Numbered from the stretch's first letter, positions 10,750-63,885 are shown. The stretch is DNA of 64,000 nucleotides from Camelus ferus (GCF_009834535.1 NC_045696.1:59212001-59276000); one strand, 5' to 3'. Numbers and translations are program-made. The notes: generated by a model not told the origin, from the letters alone.

Positions 10750-11250
10750 ACCTGAACAGCTGTCGGGGCGCTCCGGGTGCTGCCCTCCCTCCACTTCCCC
10801 TCGGGGTGGCTACCTGAGGCTTGCTCCCAAAGAGGCTATCCGGCAGCGGGCGGCAACTCGCGCCTGGCCTCAGGAGGGAGGTGTGCGGAGAGATCCAGCG
10901 CCTCGCACCTTCGGCGGGCGGAAAGCAGCAGAATCTGGGCGGGGAAGGGCGGCACCTGCCTCAGCCTCGCGGCACAGGAGAGGTGGGGCAGGACCCGGCT
11001 TTGTTAGCGCTTCGCCTTCGCCAGGCAACGACGACGCCAGCTGCGCTGCCTGGCAACCGCGGCGCAGGGGCGCGGCCGTGACCTCACAGAGCCGGCCCAC
11101 CCCCGCCGCCCCGTCCCGCCCCCTCTGCTACGGCCTCCTGCGGAGTCTCATGCGGGTGGAGCTGGGAGGCGGAGAGCTGCTTGAGGGTCGGCTTGTGGCG
11201 GAAGGACCAGACGGCTTGGCTAGCGTTTAGGGCTGAGGCTGAGGGCTTTG
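10750..11250. promoter_or_regulatory. ROPN1: CpG island promoter with tandem RFX X-boxes; probably the ROPN1 promoter and non-coding first exon (minus strand)
   Basis: CpG-rich. X-box-like TTCGCCAGGCAAC (11017-11029) and GCTGCCTGGCAAC (11045-11057), TGACCTCA (11079-11086), GC boxes at 11101-11122. Minus-strand donor candidates AAG|GTGCGA (exon end 10909) and CAG|GTAGCC (10814). Gene identity is inferred only from recalled synteny (ROPN1 lies divergently upstream of KALRN); no ROPN1 coding sequence was seen in the window. Confidence 0.6.
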
Positions 11251-12399
11251 AGGCACCTAGGGGAATGTGTAGCAATTTACAGTGGGCTTTTTGTCCGTTA
11301 GAGAGCAGAAGTGGACGACCTTTCAATGATCTTTTGGCTTGTGAAAAATGGGCAGGTGAGGAGAAGCCCTGAGGAAGAATTTTAACAAGGTTTTTGTTTT
11401 GTTTAGTTTTTTGACCAGTGACGATTCTATGTGCATGACACATATTAATTCACTTAATCCTTACAATCACCCCACCAGGCAGGGACCGTTATTATCTTCA
11501 TTTTTACAGGCGAGGAAACAGCACAGAACACCCTAGTAACTTGCCCAAGAGTTAGCAAGTGATAGGGCTAGGATTTGAACCCACAGTTTGAGGCTCCAGA
11601 TTCCTCAGATTCTATAATGATAAGAAAGGGGGTTGGATCTAGTGTGGGTAGGAACAGAGCTCAAGATGCCAGGGGCAACAGAGAAAGAAAAAATAGTCAC
11701 ATGCAGGACGGCATCACATGTGACGTCTCACATTAACTCTGGAGGTAGGTATTTATCTTCATTTTAGAAATAAGAGACAGGCTTAAAACATTGAGTAACT
11801 TGCCTATGGACAGATAGCTGACAGTGAGGCCCAATTTGACTCCAGATTTTCCGATTTCAAGATTTTTCTTTTTTAAGCTCCTCAGGAGGCAAGAAAGCCT
11901 CATCTTTCTCTGCTACAACCCTTGACACTTCACACCCATTTTTAAGGTGTCTGTTGTGGCAGCCAATGTTTCAGTCCAACCGTGGTGTGTGCTGGTCTAA
12001 ATAAATGAATTAGTTCATCCAGGGCCTTCAAAAGTTTCTGTAGTTGTGAGATGAAAGCTGTTGTTTCTCCTTAAAGCAATTTCAAGCATCAGTGAGCAAG
12101 TGGGGAAGCTGGGTTTTTGGTTTATATATGCAGAGGGCTTTCAGAGCCTGCTGTCTTCTATTTGTAAAGGGTTCCATCTCTTGGCATTTGCCAGAATCTT
12201 GCAGGTCCTTGCATAGCTGGAGAATTCTGGATGATGTGAAGATGGCTGTTTGTCCATAGGCAAGATTTGGGGATAAAAGAAGTAGAATCACTGGTCACCA
12301 TCTGCCTTGCTGAGCTCTCTGGAGAGGGGACACCTGATGTTGGCGTAGGCATCTGCTCAGCGTGTGTGCCTTAGGATTGGAGAGGGAGGCTGGAGGTTT

Positions 12400-12995
12400 T
12401 GTGACTGGAGGATAGGTTCTTATCTCATGTAGGAAAGAATTCAAGAGCAAGATATGGTGAAGTGAAGGTAGATTTATTCAGGGAGATAAGCTCTTCACAG
12501 GCAGAGTGCGGTCTAACTTACTCAGAAGGGAGAGCGATTTAGGAGATAACATGCTTTACAGGCAGAATGTGGGCCATCTCAAAGGGCAAGAGGGAGAGGC
12601 TGTGAGGTATGGCAGTGTTTAGTTTAAAGTAAAAATAGATACATGCTCCATAGACAGAGTGTGGGCTGTCTCAGAAGGCAAGAGAGAGAGAGCGACCATG
12701 AGGTGCGGGGTTGCTAGTTTCTATATGCTCAGTAATTTCTTATGCTAACAAGTAAAAAGATTATTCCAACTACTTTGAGGAAGGGCTGGGATTCCCAGGA
12801 ATTGGGCCCTGTGCACTTTTGGTCCTTTTATGGTCAGCCTAGGAACTGTCATGGTGCCTCTGGGTGTGCAGTGAGGCTCAAGGTCTAGTGGAAGTCAAAT
12901 CTTCTGCCATCTTGGTTCTAAACAGTTTGTCCTATCCTTAACTGCTGTGTCATTCCTTCAGTGGTCGTGCCCTGCCCTCTTCCCTCCTGTCCTAT
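12400..12995 (-). mobile_element. ERV1-class solo LTR with internal tandem subrepeats
   Basis: TG start, TTTATT near the left end (polyA signal on the minus strand), three AGATA..CAGGCAGA(G/A)TG(T/C)GG-like subrepeats. Confidence 0.65.
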
Positions 12996-17973: not shown

Positions 17974-18006
17974 AAGGATGGAGAAGATGAACAATAGAGA
18001 GGCATG
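17974..18006 (+). other. Candidate micro-exon of the cryptic plus-strand gene (ATG at 17978, MEKMNNREA..)
   Basis: Acceptor TTTCCTTTGTACCAG|, strong Kozak AGGATGG, donor ATG|GTAGGC. Short, so it could be a chance match. Confidence 0.25.
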
Positions 18007-19472
18007 GTAGGCATTCTGGTCCGCAGTCCACCTTGATGATTTCTTAGAAGGCCTTAGGAAAAATGGAGCTGATATAGGCTGAGTGGGGCCACATTATGAC
18101 TTTTATGGGTCTCAGGCATATTTGCATTTGTGTGCCCCTTCCACCGTTAAAAATGTCAAAACCTACATTTTACAACTGTGCTGGCATATGGCAAATACAT
18201 TAATATATTAGTTTTTGTGGACCCCTAAAAGTGTTGTAGTCCCTAAGCACTGTGTCTCCTGTGCCTAATGAATTAGTCAGCCCTGTAAGTGGGCAAGGGG
18301 ACAAGGAAATAGCCTGACTCCTTTTTTCAGGGTCTAAAAGTACCTAGGTTCCAATCTGTTCTTCTCAATGATGCCTATGTCGGATGTTATGGTCATAAAT
18401 AAGGCGAATGAATGTTCTTCCTCTGAGAGGCTTTGAGGGGGCGGGGCTGTGGAGGGCTGGGCAGCACAAAGCTGGACACCTCCCAGAGCTGGGCTGCTTA
18501 TCTCTTCAGCCTGCCCCACATACCTTCTCTGTATGATACTGCGGGTGTTACAGTCTCCACACTGGGAGGGGCCAGGGCTATTGTCCCACTTTGTAGATGG
18601 AGAGCTTAAAGTGTGGTGAGGTGAGCCTGGGTGGCTTGTTCTTCTGCAGCTGATTCAGATTCTAATGCCTTGCTGCTTTCTTGGCAGCACAAAGAAGAAA
18701 CACTTAAAATAATTTTTTTCTGACTATAAAAGTGATACTGGTTTATTATGAAATTTGGAAAATAAAAGAAGTTGAGAGAAGATTTAAAAAGAACTTTATT
18801 CCTAAGTCCTGGAGCCAGCCACTGCCCACTGCCTGATGAAGTCGTGTAAATGGGTGAACCCTACCACCCGTGGGACAGGACTCTTCCAGTTCCCAGGAGC
18901 TGACACAGTAGTGCTGGTTGTCGTTGCTGTTTTTGCCTGATGTCACTCTCAACTATAAAATGACTGGACTTAATGAAACCCTCCCACCTTCCAAGGCTTA
19001 CAAACTACAATGTTAACTGAAAAAGGCAGATTACAAAATTTATGTACAGTATGATCTCAATTGCATAGAAACATGCATAAAAATTGAGGAAGGAAATAGA
19101 TAATTATGCCAACAGTGATATTAGTCCACGGAAGCTCCAGTGTGAGTGACGGACAGCTTTTTGGGGGGTTGGTAGCTTTTCAGCACCACCTAAACCCTCC
19201 CCTACAGAGAGTTTCCTATGCAATTTCCAGGCAGTTTCCTATGAATCATATTGCTGCTGTTTATACTCCTGGGAGAGGTCAAGGGGGGTCGGTGATCCCT
19301 CCATGCATAAACCCTACACCTTTGGAAGTAGCTGTCCTCCCTCGTCTCCTTTTCCCTGTGCCCACCCATGAAGCAGCAGTTTCTGCAGACTCCTATTTGT
19401 ATTCGAGGCTGGCAGTGGGTTTTCCCAGCTCTCCTCTTGGGAACATGATTCTATTCTCTACATAAAAGCAAG

Positions 19473-19654
19473 GATGCAATTAAAGCTACGCATGAGAGAG
19501 CAATCAAGGGAACTAACAACTCCACATTACTGTGAAGAGGATGCCACTGAACGAGGGCAGTTTCTGCAGCAGACTCTTCCTACGGTTACCACAAATGCAG
19601 AAGAGCAGCTTCTGGTGGCTCTGAAGGCCCTCATAAGCAGAGCATTCCCTGCAG
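19473..19654 (+). pseudogene. Candidate exon A of an unannotated or decaying gene
   Basis: Non-repeat, protein-like translation (..EEQLLVALKALISRAFPA). Donor CAG|GTAGGA at 19654 in phase 1; the acceptor is weak. Confidence 0.4.
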
Positions 19655-21884
19655 GTAGGAATCTGGCTCATCCCAGAGAGATGGGGATCTGCAGACAAAA
19701 TACTTTGCCTTCTTCAGTGGCCTGGTCCAGGATCTTACCATGTTTCCTTTAGCCCTAACCTAAATCCCACCTGCTAAGTTTTCACCCCATATCTGCTTTC
19801 CTTGTTGAAGACAGGAAACATTGGCTCATTGTCCCCGTCTAACTCTCTGTAGCTCAATGCTGGGTTTCTTCTAAAGCATCTATGTCAGGCCCAGAAAATT
19901 AGAATAATACCAGGTTAAGAAACTAAGTCTAAGTGATACATTCAATAATTTAAGTCAACAAATATTTGTCTGAGTACTTACTATGTGCCAGGCAGGAAAG
20001 AAATAGACAAGGGACACAGACTGAACCAGAGGTTATTAGTGCGTGCTACGTTAGATGCTGTATTCAAGGGCCCCAAGTCCTCTGTCAGTTGTTAAAGTGA
20101 GCTCTGAAGGCAGATAGACTTGGGTTGAATCTACTTACTCTTTCTGTTACCTAAGCCAAACTGCTCACCTACCTGACTCTCAGTTTTATTACCCTAAAAT
20201 GGGGATAATAGTATCTATTTCAGAGGTTGTAGAATAAATGAAATCATTTAAGCAAAGTACAACTTGTAATGGTGGACGTTGCTCTGTAAATGCTGCTCTT
20301 TCATACAGGTTTTATAATGATTTGGTGATGGGGACATCAGAGATATTGGGTGTAGTAGGAAATTGGTATTTATTTTTAAAAATGTGAATTTTAATATGTA
20401 TTGTTCACTTTGTGGATCAGCTGTAATTCCAGATTGGCTTCCTGCAGACTCAGTTATGATCTATCTATTATTAATATGCCAACATTCATTCACCCAACAA
20501 GTATTTCTTATGTGTCTTTTATGGTATAGTCAATGTATGCTAGGGTAATAAAAACTGCCTTTAATGTAAACTTGGTGCAGACATGATCAGAAAGGGAAAT
20601 CTGCTAGGAAGAAAATCTTGTATGGAAGGAGTTTCCAGGAAGCGGAAGATGGGCCCAGGAGAAGCACAGATGCCGGCAGAGACACTTCTCCAACGCTGGC
20701 AGAAGCCCTCCTAACCAATGCTTGCCTGCAGAGGAGTCCTGGGAGCCTGGACTTGCCACTCATTCTTGAATTGCATTTATTCTGGGAACCAAGCAGAGTG
20801 CTGTGTCAATCTGCTAAGGAGGAGGCGGAATTATAAATAGGATGTGTGCTGAAAATAGGAAATAAGACGAAAGATGGTATTTGGGGCTTTCACGGCTTTA
20901 CCCCCCTTAAGCAGAGAGGAAAGCCATCCAGTGTTGGTGGGGGCAAGAAATTCAGGAGTCATCGTTCCAAGAGAAGTGGAAGAAAGTCAGAAGTAAGAAA
21001 GTGATGAAAAGTGGAGAGGTGGGAAGAAGTGAGTGAGATGTGAACAGAGGGGTGGGAAGGTAAGCTGTCCTCCACGGGCAGATGAGATAAAATCAAAGAG
21101 AAAAACCTTGTGCTAGGACAAGGAGTGAAGATTTACCCAGCTGGAGAGAAACTTGAAATAACAAGATAGTAATCACACATGGCCAGAAAGAAGGATTGGG
21201 TAGGAAAAGAATTTAAAAACTTAAGCCATAAAATTAAATGGAAAGGCTGATATGATTATGAGATAAAAGACCAGACTTCATCATAGCATTCCCAGGTAGT
21301 ACCATTTACCCTTCCCCCCAAAGCCCACCTTGACCCTCAGCCCTCAAGGTGAATGAATATCTTCAGAGGCATTAGTGAATCAATAATGGGATATTCTTTC
21401 ATCAGGGGTGGGAAAGGGTGTTCTAGCTATGGTTAAGGGAGGCTGTAATGGAAAGAAGTCTTGGAATTGGAGTTGGGTCCCAGCATTGTCATTAACTGGA
21501 CATATGACCTCAGACAAGTCACCTGACCTCTGTGAGCTGGGTTTGGATATAGACTCTACCATGAACTGCCTGTTTGACCTTAATCTATTCACTTCCCTTT
21601 TGTAGACTTCCTTTTCTTTATCCGTACAACGATGGATATTAAACTGTGTCTTAAAAGCTGCTGCCAGGTGTAAAATTCTACATTTTAATACTTGGATGAA
21701 TGCTTAGGATGAGAGAGAATAATGACCCCCCTATTTTAATTCGATCTATAATAGGAAACCGCTCTCACAGAGACCATCCAGCTTAGATACTGGATGAATG
21801 GAGAGTCCTAAGTCCTGGTCTAGACAGAATAGGTCTCCTTTTTGTATTGCATAGATACATGCCTTCTCCCATCTCTCTCTGTAG

Positions 21885-22100
21885 ATGTGCCAAGTGTGGA
21901 TCTGTGCTGCTTGAGACAGGGGGCCCTGGCAGCGTTAGCCCATACAAGAGAGTTTTTAGCAATTACCCACCCAGGATCAGTTGGGCAGGAGGCTGCTGGA
22001 GAACATAGCATGGAGGTTTCTCAAGGAGGCCTTGGAGGAAACCATATAACGGCACTCTGCCAAAGAGATGAGAGAGACCTAGTTATCTTGCAAATAGAAG
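21885..22100 (+). pseudogene. Candidate exon B (216 nt, symmetric phase 1)
   Basis: Excellent acceptor CCTTCTCCCATCTCTCTCTGTAG| and donor GAAG|GTATGG. Open in the frame set by exon A. Confidence 0.55.
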
Positions 22101-23466
22101 GTATGGAATGGCAGGTCTGGTTTTGCTTCATTTCCCCAAAATGATCTCTTTCTGAGGCCAAAACAAAGATTTGGGGAAGTTGTAGGTCAGGGGATACCAA
22201 AGTGCATCAATGTTGAGAAGTATTCTCTGAAGCAATATTGCCCAAGCTCATGAATCAGGAACAAATTTAGGAACATGGTGCATACTTTTACCTTACAAAT
22301 CACATTATCAATTCACCTTGATACAATCACTTGTCCTCCCACTGCTCCCTATGCTAAGGTTGTTTCATTGGATACAGGTTCCTATGAAGATTATCTCAGC
22401 TGCCTCTAGAGATTCTGTTGCTTCTGCTCTGCACTCTTGCTCATCTCTCCTCACCTCCCCACCTCCTCATAGGCGCTAGTATGCAAAAGCTCACCCCCGT
22501 TAGACAGATAACTTTGAATCTTAATCAGCTTTTATTCGCTTGTCTAGGGAGTCCTTAAATAGCTCAAACCTTATAAATTTCTGACAATAGGTATGAATCC
22601 AGGTACTGGGTCACTGGGTCACTGTCTGGGATGTTTAAGCCTTGGATATTGGAAGTCCTGGCCTAGGAGACTTATCATATCATTTTATTATATCAAGGAT
22701 TGTAAATGGGGATCCACATGTGGGGATACATGTAAGTCTTGGTCAGAAACCTTGGTAGGAAACCAAGACCATTACCAATAGGCAGAGTGTCCCCTCTGCT
22801 ACAGGTGTTTTGTCAGTGCTGAAGTATATGTTTTGATAAACTGATTGACTACTGTAACCTCTTAGATGGTTGTGAACCCTTCTTAAGGGCAGACTGGTGG
22901 CCGGGTCAGACTGAGTATTGCTTAGAGTTAGAGCTTTATTTGAGTTTGGGCCTTGCTCTTCCAGCTGCTGTCCTGACAGACAGCATCAGCATCGTCCGGG
23001 AGAGGGAGCTTGTCAGAAGAACAGAATCTCAGGCTCCATGTCAGACCTACTGGGTTAAAACTGCATCTGACAAGATTCCCAGGTGATTTGTATGCTCCTT
23101 AAAGGTTAAGAAGCTCCTTAACCTGGATTAGGGTGCTCCTTTAAGAAAGAATATAAATGTCTCTCCCAGAAGGTTACAACAGGCCAGTTACTTACAATGT
23201 AATGAGAACAATTTAAACAAGGTTACTTCTCATTTATCCCTTAGCTAAAATAAACCAGAATGGGAATTTTGTTTGAAAGGGGTGGAAAAAAATCACCAAA
23301 CACCCAGGCTCTCACCCCTACTGTAACCTCAGCTTTAACCACAGGGATCTGACATATAGCAGGGCTCAACACATTTTTGTTTGTTTTTGTTATTTGGCTG
23401 AATAACTGATTTACAATAACAAAGGATATGTGGTTTTGTGGTTATCGCTATTTGCTATATGCTGCG

Positions 23467-23893
23467 TGTGGTAGGCAGAATAATGGATCCCAAAATGCCC
23501 AAGTCCTAATCCCTGGAAGCTGTGGATATGTTAACTTACGTGGCACTGACGATTTTATGATAGGGAGATATTCCTGGATTATCCAGGGGGACCCAATGAA
23601 ACCATAAGGTTTCTGAAAAGTGGATGAGGGAAGCCAATGGGGAGGTCAGAGTCAGAGAAGGATATGTAAGAAAAATTAGACCTGTTGTTGGCTTTGAAGA
23701 CGGAGGAAGAGGACCAGGACCATGAGTCAAGGAATGTGGGTGATCTTTACATGCTGGAAAAGGCAAGGGAACGGTTCTCCTCTAGAGCCTCCAGAAAGGA
23801 ATGCAGACCTGCAAAATCACATTTTGCCCAGTGATACCTGTGTTGGACTTCTTACCTACAGAACTATACAATAATTTATGTTGTTTTAAGCAA
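23467..23893 (+). mobile_element. MLT1 (MaLR) LTR, followed by an antisense L1 fragment to about 24375
   Basis: TGTGGTAGGCAGAATAATGG.., TCTCCTCTAGAGCCTCCAGAAAGGAATGCAG. Confidence 0.8.
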
Positions 23894-24594
23894 GTCTTTT
23901 AAATTTTTTACTATTCTAATGGATGTGTAATGGTATACCATTATGATTTAAATTAGCATGCAAATAATGATGTGGAGCATTTTATATATGCTTATTGGCC
24001 ATTCATATACCTTCTTCCATGAAATATTGCTTCATATTTTTTGCCCCTTTTAAGATTGCATTGGTTGTATTTTTATTATTGAGTGGTAAGTGTTCTTTAT
24101 ATATTCTAAGTCCTTTGCCAGATACATGCATTAAAAGTTTTGTCTCACATTCTGCGGCATAACTCTTCATTTTTAAATTTGTCTTATTTTCTTATACCTT
24201 TCCATTTTTTAGACAGTGTCTTTCGAAGAGCAACATTTAAAAATTTTGATTAGGTCCAATTTATTAACTTTTTGTTTTATCTTTCGTGTATACTAAGAAA
24301 TCTTTGCCAACTCGAAGGTTGCAAAGCTTTTCTCCTATGTTTTCTTTTAGAAATTGCATAGTTTAAGATTTTATACCACTTGTGCGTAACCTTAACTGCC
24401 TCTTTTGATCTCTGAGATCCTTGGGTCCATGGGTCTTCCCAGTAGAATCTCTTTTTATTTGTAATGGGAATAAACCTTAAGACTTAGCTGGAGTCCTTTG
24501 ATTCCATCATCAGCCATTTGAGGTCAAGGCCACATAAACATATAGAAGAAAATTTAGAAATTTCACCGAGTGATAAAATTTCTCCTCTACTTAG

Positions 24595-25187
24595 GTACTA
24601 CAATGTGCAATATGACTAGTTGTCCCATCTTGAGCCTAAATAAGATTGATATTCCTCGGAAAGAAAGTGGGCAGCAATGCCAGGAGCTGATTTGGCTAAA
24701 GGAAGAGGGAAGGTGTTTTTGCTCAGGCACCTGGCCTGGAGAGACATGGGGGATCAGGAGAGAGAAAGGTGTCTATTCTGGATATTTACGAGTAGAGTTC
24801 ATGAGACTCAAGGAGAAACTGAAGGATATGATTTCACAACTGATGCTGGAAGCAGAAGAACACAAACAGAGATGCTACTTTGGCATCTAGGGGAAAAGTG
24901 TCTTCTTCTCCACTTCACATACACCCAGCATGGCTTTAACCAGAAAAGACTCTGGGAAGTACAGAGCATCTTTGGCACCATGGAAATTTGCAGTGCTGGG
25001 AGCTCCAAGAGCCACCAGCCTTGGCACAGACATTAGTGTGGTCACAGAAAAAAAAAGTGGGGACAGAGTTGAAAAACAAGAGAGAAGTTCTTGAGTGCAT
25101 GAGAGACTCCCCTGGAGAACTCTCCAAAATGCGGGAGTAGAGGATTATTGCCAGTAACAAGACAGGAAAGGAGGAAAGGAGAGCTGG
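24595..25187 (+). pseudogene. Candidate exon C (593 nt) with a coiled-coil-like segment and in-frame stops
   Basis: Acceptor TTTCTCCTCTACTTAG|, donor TGG|GTAAGC. The frame entered from exon B reads ..EFMRLKEKLKDMISQLMLEAEEHKQ.. to TAG at 24888-24890, with two further stops later. Confidence 0.5.
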
Positions 25188-25744
25188 GTAAGCCTTGGGG
25201 ACAGTCACAATGGAAATGACTGGCCCAAGGGGGTGCTACGGATTACTTACAGCTCTTAGGAAGGAGGATGGGAGAGGGCAGGCATAGCAAGTTTTCTGTC
25301 TGTTGCAGCCATAAACCAGGCTAAAAAGGCAAGAGTTATCTGAACTGCCCTCCCTAGGAGGGTCATACATTCAGGATCTGACTCATGGATGACTATCCTT
25401 AATACTGATCTGTAGATGTTGGTTTCTCTAAGAGGGCTAAGAAAGTTCGACAATATTTTTTTTAAGTATTCTGGTTTAAAAGTATCTTCCCACAAATTAT
25501 TTGGAAATTGCAAAGGCAAAAATGTACTTTATAATCTAGATATTTGTAAGCTACCCTTTAACCAATCATCACCACTAGTGGAACAACCTAATATTGTATA
25601 TCTCCTGCTGGGATATATTATGATGTATGTAGCATCATCTATAAAGTATTCTTGCCCAAAGTGAATCTATTCAAGCTTTCAGGCCAGCATTGTCCAACAG
25701 AAATATAATATGAGCCACATGTAATTTTAAATTTTCTAGTAGCC

Positions 25745-27160
25745 ACCAACAGACAACAACAACAACAAAAATATAAACTGGACTATGTCCAAATTAAAAA
25801 CTTGTGTCATTAAAGGATACAATGGACAGAGTGAAAAGGCAGTCAGGGGTTGGACAAAATATTTGCAAGTCATATATCTGATAAGGGATTGATATCAAGA
25901 ATATATAAAGAACTATAATGTAACAACAACAAAATATAACTAGATTAAAAAATAGGCAAAGGACTTGAAATATTCCTCCAAAGAATATATACAAATGGTC
26001 AATAAGCATATGAAACGATGCTCAGCATCACTAATCATTAGGGAAATGCATATCAAAAATGCAATGAGAAAAAAATGCAATGAGATCATACTTATTAGAA
26101 TGGCTATTAACAAAAAAAAAAAAGGAAATTAACAAATGTTGGTGAGGATGTGGAGAAATTGGAACTATTGCTGATGAGAATGAAAAATAGGTGCAGCCTC
26201 TGTAGAAAACAAAATTAAACACAGAATTACCATATGATCCAGCAATCCCACTTCTGAGTAAATACCCCAAAAAATTGAAAGCAGGTACTCGAATACATAT
26301 TTGTACACACAAGGTTCATAGCAGCATTATTCAATGTAGTCAAAAGGTAGAAGCAATTCAAATGGACATCAGTGGGTGAATGGATAAACAAAATGTGGTA
26401 TATACGTAAAATGGAACATTATTCAGCCTTAAAAGGGAAAGAAATTCTGACACATGCTGCAACATGGATGAATCTTGAAGACATTATGTTAAGTGAAATA
26501 AGACAGACACAAAAGGACAAATGGTGTATGACGTCACTTATCTGAGGTGCCTGATGTAGTCAAATTGCATAGAGACAGAAAGCAGAATGGTGGTTGCCAG
26601 GGGCTGGGGGAAGGAGGAATGAGGAGTTGTTGTTTAATGGGTAGTTTCAGTTTGGGAAGATGAGAAAGTCCTAGAGATGGGTGGTGGTGATGGTTTCACC
26701 AACAAGGTGAACGTATTTGATGCCACTGAACGGTCCACTTAAAGATAGTTAAAATGGTATATGTGATGTTATGTATGTTTTACCACAATAAAAAGGCAAC
26801 AAATGGCATTCTTGCAGCAATTGAGGATATTTGATGTTATAGAATTACTAATTTTTTAGGTGTAATGATGGTATCATGGTTATAAAGGACAATGTCCTTA
26901 TTCTCAGGGGATGCATTCTGAAGTGTGTGGAGGATAAAAATGTCATGATATCTATGATTTATTTTCAAATGGTTCAAAATGATTAAAAAAAAAAACAAGA
27001 AAAACCCCAAACATACACATGCACACATACCGTATATATAGATGAAGCAAATGTGGCAAAATGTTAGCTGTTGATGAAATAGGAGAAGCATATACAGGTA
27101 TTCATTTTTTGTATTCTTATTATTTTTCCTGTGTGTTTGAAAACATTCAGAATAAACACG
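25745..27160 (+). mobile_element. LINE-1 3' fragments (ORF2 end and 3' UTR, L1M types)
   Basis: GAATTACCATATGATCCAGCAATCCCACTTCTG, GGATAAACAAAATGTGGTATAT, end ..TACCACAATAAAAA at about 26793; a second L1MC-like 3' end runs to about 27160. Confidence 0.85.
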
Positions 27161-27400
27161 GGGGCAGGAGGAAGAAGGTGACTGGAGACCTCGGAAATGC
27201 CCAAATCCTATTCTCAAACAAGGAACATGATCTTCTCTCTCTTCCCCATAAAGTTTCTAAGGACAGTATATGCACAGGGAACAATGACAAAGGAAAGTAG
27301 CTCTTCACTGAGCTTGTGTTTGAAAGCTACATGCCTCTCTCTCTATTAGGTGGCCTAGAGCACCTGGCAGAGGCCAGAGTCTTACCTGTGCCTCTTCTTC

Positions 27401-28036
27401 TGTTACCGAACGCTCACCCAAAGTAAAGCCAAACTACTGACACTGGGTTGTGGTGGTGGTGAGTGCAGCATTTATTGCAGGATTTAAGTGCAGCATTTAA
27501 GCCAGGAGTCCAGGTAGCTAGTGCTCAAAAGGCCCAGATTCCCCAGTGACTTTTAGGGAAAGGTTTTCAAAGACAGGGTGAGGGAGGGGGTTTGTGGGGT
27601 GTGTGATCAGCTCGTGGACATCCTTCTGACTGGTTAGTGGTAAGGTAATCAGGAGTTAACATTCTCAGCCTTCTGGTTCCAACAGGGTCTGGGATCTACA
27701 TCCTTGTGGGGATATAATTAACTTCTTCCACCTGGTAGGGGTTTCAGTATCTGCAAAACAGCTCAAAGGATATGGCTTAGAATACTTATCTATAGCCCTT
27801 GAGGAGGAAATAGAGTTCCTTGACTTTGCTTAGTAGCTAAACTATTATTTTGTCTTGCTTGACTCTTTTCCTTTCTTTGTGTATTTTCTCACTTCTTGGA
27901 CTGAATTTAATCTTTGGAACTTGGGGAAAGCCTAGGAGGCTAACATTTTTCAACACGCAAGAGACAGGCAGAGGACATGGGGTGGGTGAGGGGTCTATGG
28001 AACCAGGAAGCTTCCATAGGATCCTGCTCAGTTACA
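27401..28036 (-). mobile_element. ERV1-class solo LTR, 636 bp, with a 4-bp TSD (CTTC)
   Basis: TGTTA..TTACA termini, CTTC at 27397-27400 and 28037-28040, TTTATT near the left end. Confidence 0.85.
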
Positions 28037-38564: not shown

Positions 38565-39552
38565 TTGTTCTTCAGCTTTTTTTTTTTAAGTCCTAACAGT
38601 GAACCTAACCCTAAACTTGCACTTAGCCCTAACCCTGAACCTAGCCCTGATAGTGTATGTAGCCCTGACTCTGAACCTAGCCCTAACCGTGAACATAGCC
38701 CTCACCTTGAACCTAGCCCTAAACCTGAAATTAGCCCTAACTCATCACCTAGCCCTAACCCTGCATATTGCCCTAACCCTGAAACTAGCCTTAACCCTGA
38801 ATCTAGACCTAAATCTGAACCTAGCTCTAACCCTCAACCTAGCCCTAAACCTGAAACTAGCCCTAATCCTGAACATAGTCTTCACCTTGAAACTAACCCT
38901 AATCCTGCACCTAGCCTTAACCCTGGACCTAGCCCTAAACCTGAACTTAGCCATAAGCCTTCTCCTAGCCCTAACTCTGAAACTAGCCCTAACCCTTCAC
39001 CTAGACCTAAACCTGCACCTAGGCCTAACACTGAACTTTGCACTAACCGTGAATGTTTCTTGTCCTAACCCTTAACCTAGCCCTAAACCTGAATCCAGCC
39101 CTAACAATGAACCGAGCTCTAACCCTGAAACTAGCCCTAAACCCGAACCCAGACCTAAACCTGAAACTAGGCCTAAAATGGACCTAGCTAGCCCTGCACC
39201 TAGCCCTAAACTTCAACCTAGCCTTAACCCTGAACCTAGCCCTCAACCTGAACCTAGCCCTAAGCCTGCATGTAGACATAACCCTACAATGGGACCTAAA
39301 CATGCATCTAACCCTAAACCTGAACCAAGCCCTAACCTTGTACCTATCCCTGACCCTGAACCTAGCCCTAAACCTGAACCTACCCCTAACTGTGAACCTA
39401 GTCCTAAACCTCAACATAGCGGTAAACTAGAAACTAGCCCTAACAATGAACCTTGCCCTATCCTTCTTTTTTTTTTTTTTTCTTTTCTCTTTTTGGCATC
39501 ATTTTATTTATTTATTTATTTTAACATTTTTTATTGATTGTTCGTCAGCTTT
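38565..39552 (-). mobile_element. L1-mediated retrotransposed insertion (3' transduction) with a 15-bp TSD
   Basis: TTGTTCTTCAGCTTT (38565-38579) and TTGTTCGTCAGCTTT (39538-39552). T-run at 38577-38587, internal T-run at 39467-39481, and an L1-3'-end-like TTTATTTTAACATTTTTTATTGATT at the right end. Confidence 0.75.
38592..39461. repeat. 18-bp telomere-variant minisatellite/satellite (consensus CCTAGCCCTAACCCTGAA), roughly 48 diverged units
   Basis: Directly visible periodicity built from CCCTAA, CCCTGA and ACCTAG hexamers. Confidence 0.95.
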
Positions 39553-42405: not shown

Positions 42406-42516
42406 GCCTTCCTAAACACTTCCATCTACTCTTATGTATCAGGCCTTCCTAAACACTTCCATCTACTCTTATGTATCAGGCCTTCCTAAACACTTCCATC
42501 TACTCTTATGTATCAG
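42406..42516. repeat. Perfect 37-bp tandem repeat, 3 copies
   Basis: GCCTTCCTAAACACTTCCATCTACTCTTATGTATCAG at 42406, 42443 and 42480. Confidence 0.95.
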
Positions 42517-50308: not shown

Positions 50309-50381
50309 ATGAACCCCCCGGAGGGGGCAGCGGAGGAAGGAGGAGCCGCCGACTCGGACGTGGACGCCTTTTTCCGGACAG
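50309..50381 (+). CDS. KALRN: Kalirin RhoGEF kinase, alternative first coding exon (Ex1B-type N-terminus), 24 codons plus a phase-1 donor
   Basis: ATG at 50309 encodes MNPPEGAAEEGGAADSDVDAFFRT, which I recognise as the Kalirin b-isoform N-terminus preceding GSFRNDG. The strong donor CAG|GTAAGC at 50381/50382 splits the Gly codon. The exon lies inside a CpG island. Confidence 0.92.
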
Positions 50382-63742: not shown

Positions 63743-63885
63743 GGGGAGAGTATAGCTCAGTGGTAGAGCATATGCTTGCTACCACTAGTATGGTAGCATG
63801 TACAAGGTCCTGAGTTCAATCCCCAGTACCTCCATTAAAAATAAACAGATAATAAACCTAATTACACCCCCCAAAATAAAAAAAA
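63743..63885 (+). mobile_element. tRNA-derived SINE (camelid type) with an internal hairpin insertion
   Basis: GGGGAGAGTATAGCTCAGTGGTAGAGC..GAGTTCAATCCCCAGTACCTCC and an A-rich tail; same family as 345-462. Confidence 0.85.

Follow-up and report, generated by a model that had tools for sequence, protein, structure and literature searches.

Divergent long non-coding RNAs (lncRNAs) and cryptic open reading frames at the CpG-island promoters of testis genes form a known class, and two other classes are close to it: unitary pseudogenes, which are defined by the existence of a functional orthologue elsewhere, and de novo testis genes. Divergent, promoter-upstream lncRNAs are also named as a category in PMC7849387. 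The spliced frame considered here lies within a window of 64,000 nucleotides of the camel genome (Camelus ferus, C1:59.21-59.28 Mb). It resembles divergent lncRNAs in that it stands head to head with a spermatid gene, is single-copy, has fair GT-AG sites and has a frame that is not conserved, but it is known from sequence alone, and a bovine testis catalogue, in its available tables, has no entry in the matching interval. Like unitary pseudogenes, the candidate is single-copy, alignable across mammals, composed of exon-like blocks and marked by lineage-specific frameshifts; unlike them, it has no functional orthologue that we found in any species. With de novo testis genes it shares a lineage-restricted frame, an identifiable enabling indel and a testis promoter alongside, but it is a sequence-level frame, and its exon 3 does not show selection by the proxy used here. 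Of these explanations we favour chance: the frame is probably fortuitous, in neutrally evolving DNA, and at most noisy RNA, transcribed divergently from the promoter of ROPN1, would carry it. The sequence observation from which the analysis started is correct, while the inference of a gene is most likely wrong.

The candidate lies between a sperm gene, ROPN1, and a neuronal one, KALRN. Sequence and gene order suggest the name ROPN1, and that of CCDC14 beyond it. The ropporin coding exons are on the minus strand, 5.4-15.3 kb to the left of the window, and among PDB entries the first of them is similar to ropporin-1-like chains (E 4e-12). Two features within the window flank the candidate:

11001-11500, no strand assigned: CpG island, with an X-box-like site at 11045-11057 and GGCAAC half-sites.
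50309-50381, plus strand: coding part of KALRN exon 1B, 24 codons plus 1 nt, inside the second CpG island, at 50 kb.

The island at 11 kb, X-box-like by the general consensus, very probably drives ROPN1, a sperm-flagellum gene transcribed from the minus strand, so any plus-strand RNA arising here would be divergent. The sequence-only reading had proposed an unannotated gene transcribed divergently from this promoter; of that proposal the setting holds, as the island is X-box-like and very probably serves ROPN1, while the interpretation of the frame as a gene is not supported. KALRN exon 1B matches PDB 7UR2, kalirin isoform 7 (E 1.3e-9), and two RhoGEF matches also lie downstream of it. A 24-residue acidic front peptide, in agreement with exon 1B, is given in PMC9823006. 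When the window is joined to the DNA that follows it, exon 1C is seen about 60 kb downstream of exon 1B (about position 110700) and exon 2 about 174 kb downstream (about position 224617). No gene between ROPN1 and KALRN is described in the abstracts and passages covered, which include PMC11117017 and PMC7849387 and come mostly from open-access papers.

The candidate was proposed to consist of three repeat-free blocks, with an optional micro-exon in front:

17974-18006, plus strand: proposed micro-exon, ATG at 17978, weak donor; requires the poor acceptor at 19473.
19474-19654, plus strand: proposed exon 1, 181 nt, 60 codons plus 1 nt; GT donor at 19655.
21885-22100, plus strand: proposed exon 2, 216 nt; matched solely by the camel's own ORF call.
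24595-24890, plus strand: proposed exon 3, 296 nt, TAG at 24888-24890; most relatives share the frame only to about 24734.

The three blocks do join through two GT-AG phase-1 introns into 693 nt, corresponding to 230 codons and a TAG. The ATG at 17978 is in a strong Kozak context, and if the micro-exon is joined by way of the AG ahead of 19473, the product has 240 aa; the latter acceptor is as weak as had been conceded, since a score at least equal to its own is found at 2558 of the interval's 5500 AGs. The remaining four sites are better. By interval-wide scoring with approximate, general matrices, 35 and 37 of 3735 GTs equal or exceed the donors at 19655 and 22101, and the corresponding figures for the acceptors at 21885 and 24595 are 35 and 137 of 5500 AGs, so that all four are among the top 1-2.5% of the interval's GT or AG sites. 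A second good acceptor, at 21855, is in frame and 30 nt 5' of the proposed exon 2, and yields a 240-aa join that does not involve the micro-exon. The first canonical AATAAA 3' of the frame is at 26787. In a genome copy search, exons 2 and 3 were single-copy as DNA and all three exons were so as peptides. No parent gene or retrocopy was found in the 2.09-Gb genome, where each exon peptide matches itself alone, and exon 1 has neither a Pfam match nor a paralogue in the genome.

How unusual such a frame is depends on the splice sites that are admitted. With strict thresholds, which are the scores of the candidate's own weakest sites, a frame of at least 230 aa from three blocks was obtained in none of 100 Markov simulations (maximum 218 aa) and in none of 10 real strand-blocks of 37.5 kb taken from the neighbouring KALRN introns, whose maximum was 221. 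Once the thresholds were relaxed, such a frame appeared in 7 of 10 and 9 of 10 of the real strand-blocks, at up to 373 aa. The frame, itself selected out of a very large scan, is thus modestly unusual, and only under post-hoc thresholds tuned to the candidate. If it is a chance product its meaning is one of caution only, as a free choice of GT-AG pairs often yields frames of such length in mammalian non-coding DNA.

The composition of the blocks is slightly exon-like. The codon-usage score of the candidate is -0.017 against -0.118 for the non-coding null, a value reached in 4.0% of 2000 null draws and in 2.2% of 1000 draws matched for GC and purine content. Real genes scored +0.22 (ROPN1), +0.34 (KALRN) and +0.14 and +0.04 (two olfactory receptors), and the real CCDC14 exons scored -0.14, under the null. 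The GC content is 48% in the blocks vs 39-42% in the introns.

Searches with the candidate peptide (exons 2 and 3) retrieved no named homologue, all inspected members of the matching clusters being unnamed or "hypothetical", which speaks against the proposed gene. For exon 3, HMMER returned 6 matches among 1.84 billion representatives, three of them real, two repetitive chance matches that were dropped as relatives (P0008 and P0009), and one a 4285-aa protein (P0007) for which there is no matched stretch. A search with a profile built from exon 3 relatives gave 7 clusters. The relatives, whose similarity is confined to exon 3, are nameless or "hypothetical" ORF predictions from contigs of 0.5-6.4 kb. 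Because their ORFs run into intron 2 and beyond the camel stop, we read them as unspliced stray mammalian host DNA. Exon 3 gave no match among proteins of 171-2000 aa, and exon 2, compared with proteins of 39-125 aa, found only its own camel ORF. As a control, both of two olfactory receptor genes from this genome were recovered as exact Camelus records, with one start site each. Camel RefSeq and UniRef entries are part of the collection, so any annotated camel protein in which exon 3 is included would be expected to surface; the candidate was not found among the annotated Camelus proteins. It has no match in Pfam or the PDB, no usable match in the Atlas (scores under 0.9 or TM under 0.5, depending on the query), and there is no Rfam match in 11000-49000. 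Metagenome scans for orthologous DNA gave a sole match (L011), which has no blastn similarity to the window. None of the exon 3 matches, from any species, is an intact functional orthologue, although a 97-aa query could miss deep homologues.

The relatives allow the frame of exon 3 to be followed across lineages, and two further features are needed for this comparison:

24730-24739, plus strand: 5-nt tandem duplication at the point where the camel and the relatives diverge in frame, probably a lineage-specific insertion.
24891-25187, plus strand: alignable DNA past the stop, bounded at 25188 by a donor-like GTAAGC, 297 nt beyond the stop.

In a frameshift-aware alignment, 7 relatives were painted onto the camel DNA (P0005 being represented by its cluster mate P0010). 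At 24597-24611 the candidate frame is off in one of two relatives. It is the majority frame in four of five at 24612-24730, the part by which the relatives were found, and in none of five at 24737-24800, none of seven at 24801-24846 and one of seven at 24850-24888. The relatives depart from it at about 24735, and because this break coincides with the duplication at 24730-24739, the last 51 residues look like an accident of the camel lineage. The relatives are also out of phase with one another: one cluster has 100-aa and 93-aa members with a frameshift at an A-run between them, and in two clusters the members are separated by a stop. Judged by the relatives' peptides, the exon 3 frame is not retained in orthologous DNA. 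Past the camel stop, the stop codon that terminates the ORFs of two relatives is consistent with the GTAAGC at 25188, hinting at conservation of this donor. That exon 3 is coding as far as the 25188 donor was considered and rejected, as only a single relative reads through in that frame.

An intact, conserved mammalian protein-coding gene that has been overlooked could account for the opening of exon 3, where 4 relatives, at 61-80% identity, keep the same frame open over codons 1 to 41-46. However, it was through this very part that the relatives were detected; beyond it the frame is broken in all of them, their substitutions are neutral-like and exon 2 has no relative. For exon 3 this explanation is already contradicted, and we consider it very improbable overall.

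Substitutions in exon 3 look near-neutral. As a proxy for dN/dS we used the BLOSUM62 scores of mismatches, set against a neutral simulation and a selection model devised for this analysis, with relatives that are not independent. Mismatches in the candidate frame have a mean of -0.55, compared with -0.71 +/- 0.24 for the neutral simulation and +0.39 +/- 0.22 for the selection model, and the segment past the stop behaves like the candidate frame (mean -0.69). Mismatches pooled over all 7 relatives, and those in 24737-24847, are slightly more conservative than neutral (3.2% and 3.4%, respectively, of 500 simulations as high), both sets being far under the selection model. By this proxy, purifying selection on the amino acids of exon 3 was not detected. 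The claim of an unannotated gene is unsupported on three counts: no named homologue was retrieved, the relatives do not share the frame of the 51 C-terminal residues, and the exon 3 substitutions look near-neutral.

The rival explanation of a relic supposes that an old mammalian testis gene, arranged head to head with ROPN1, has become a unitary pseudogene. Its exon 3 would once have encoded about 165-190 residues in the reading common to most relatives, and an early death would have been followed by different frameshifts in each lineage. The relatives mostly follow one frame path, along which the camel is stop-free for 163 codons, and among 807 good acceptors of the surrounding DNA just 2 open a phase-1 frame of at least 165 codons. 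The 24595 acceptor is spanned by two relatives, and the peptides of both appear compatible with a kept AG, two relatives stop where the 25188 donor would fit, and codon score and GC are mildly exon-like. Against this, the searches return open-frame relatives only, the profile was built from these and the frame path is post hoc; the 7 relatives are not independent (pairs have 82-93% identity), and no species yielded an intact named member. Nor does the shared reading have a predicted fold (AlphaFold pLDDT 38, pTM 0.27 with a 7-row alignment; Atlas pLDDT 0.29), a Pfam match or a paralogue. We regard a relic as unlikely, though a long open reading through exon 3 is common to most relatives and the codon score lies slightly over the null. 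The more specific version, in which an ancient undescribed testis gene decayed lineage by lineage and the camel still has a spliced, translatable remnant of 230-240 aa, is quite doubtful.

A camelid-specific de novo gene would not require ancestry. Here, a divergent testis transcript would have had its frame completed by camelid indels and would be translated to 230-240 aa. The frame is open, its splice sites are fair, its ATG is in Kozak context, and the probable CpG-island promoter of a sperm gene is found 7-8 kb upstream. The stretch is present in four RNA runs from the reproductive tract, but these include intronic sequence and are hence silent on splicing. Among 24 runs listed, 8 that contain the stretch are on record as RNA. 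The four reproductive-tract runs contain 64-82% of its words, and because only about 10% of the stretch is exon they must hold intronic sequence, as DNA carry-over or unspliced RNA; shares of 0.07-0.27 are near the expectation for scattered DNA, and none of these runs is taken as evidence. The failure to find the candidate among the annotated Camelus proteins, the poor first acceptor and the distance to a canonical poly(A) signal also weigh against a de novo gene, which we rate as improbable. Should either a relic or a de novo gene prove true, it would represent an undescribed sperm-related gene, or a gene loss, at a well-studied fertility locus.

Bovine testis data allow a comparison in another species, subject to its own filters. 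In the available supplement tables 2, 3, 4 and 10 of PMC6624472 (23,709 novel-lncRNA, 13,615 uncertain-coding and 22,119 mRNA rows), no transcript has its start or its end within the ROPN1-KALRN interval of chromosome 1, from 68.99 Mb to LNC_000241 at 69.039 Mb. LNC_000241 is reported there as a neighbour of ROPN1 in cattle; as a counterpart of the candidate it was rejected, as it starts 49 kb from ROPN1, a position that we assign to the KALRN exon 1B promoter, outside the interval.

Under the favoured explanation, the frame would have arisen by chance in the intergenic DNA that separates ROPN1 from KALRN, which is single-copy and evolves neutrally, and no functional protein would result. As CpG-island promoters in general suggest, that of ROPN1 may have weak activity in the reverse direction in spermatids, and the divergent RNA could use the candidate's cryptic splice sites, giving a low-level non-coding RNA. 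If the donor at 25188 were used, the stop would lie 297 nt upstream of the junction, and the RNA would be a substrate for nonsense-mediated decay.

Several other elements occur in the window. A degenerate telomere-like array at 38592-39460 has an 18-nt period and 48 copies with 70% matches, contains 23 CCCTAA hexamers (vs 0.3 per kb elsewhere) and includes Pro-rich open frames of 153-170 aa. At 42406-42516, a 37-nt unit occurs in three identical copies, which point to a recent tandem expansion. Two elements at about 360-460 and about 63745-63870 we take to be tRNA-derived and SINE-like, of the camelid type, and those at about 12400-12900 and 27400-27950 are presumably LTR-like solo elements. 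Intron 1 of ROPN1 has, at about 800-2800, what we assume to be decayed coding fragments of a DNA transposon (hAT/Charlie-like), within which 1618-1962 is an open stretch of 114 codons.
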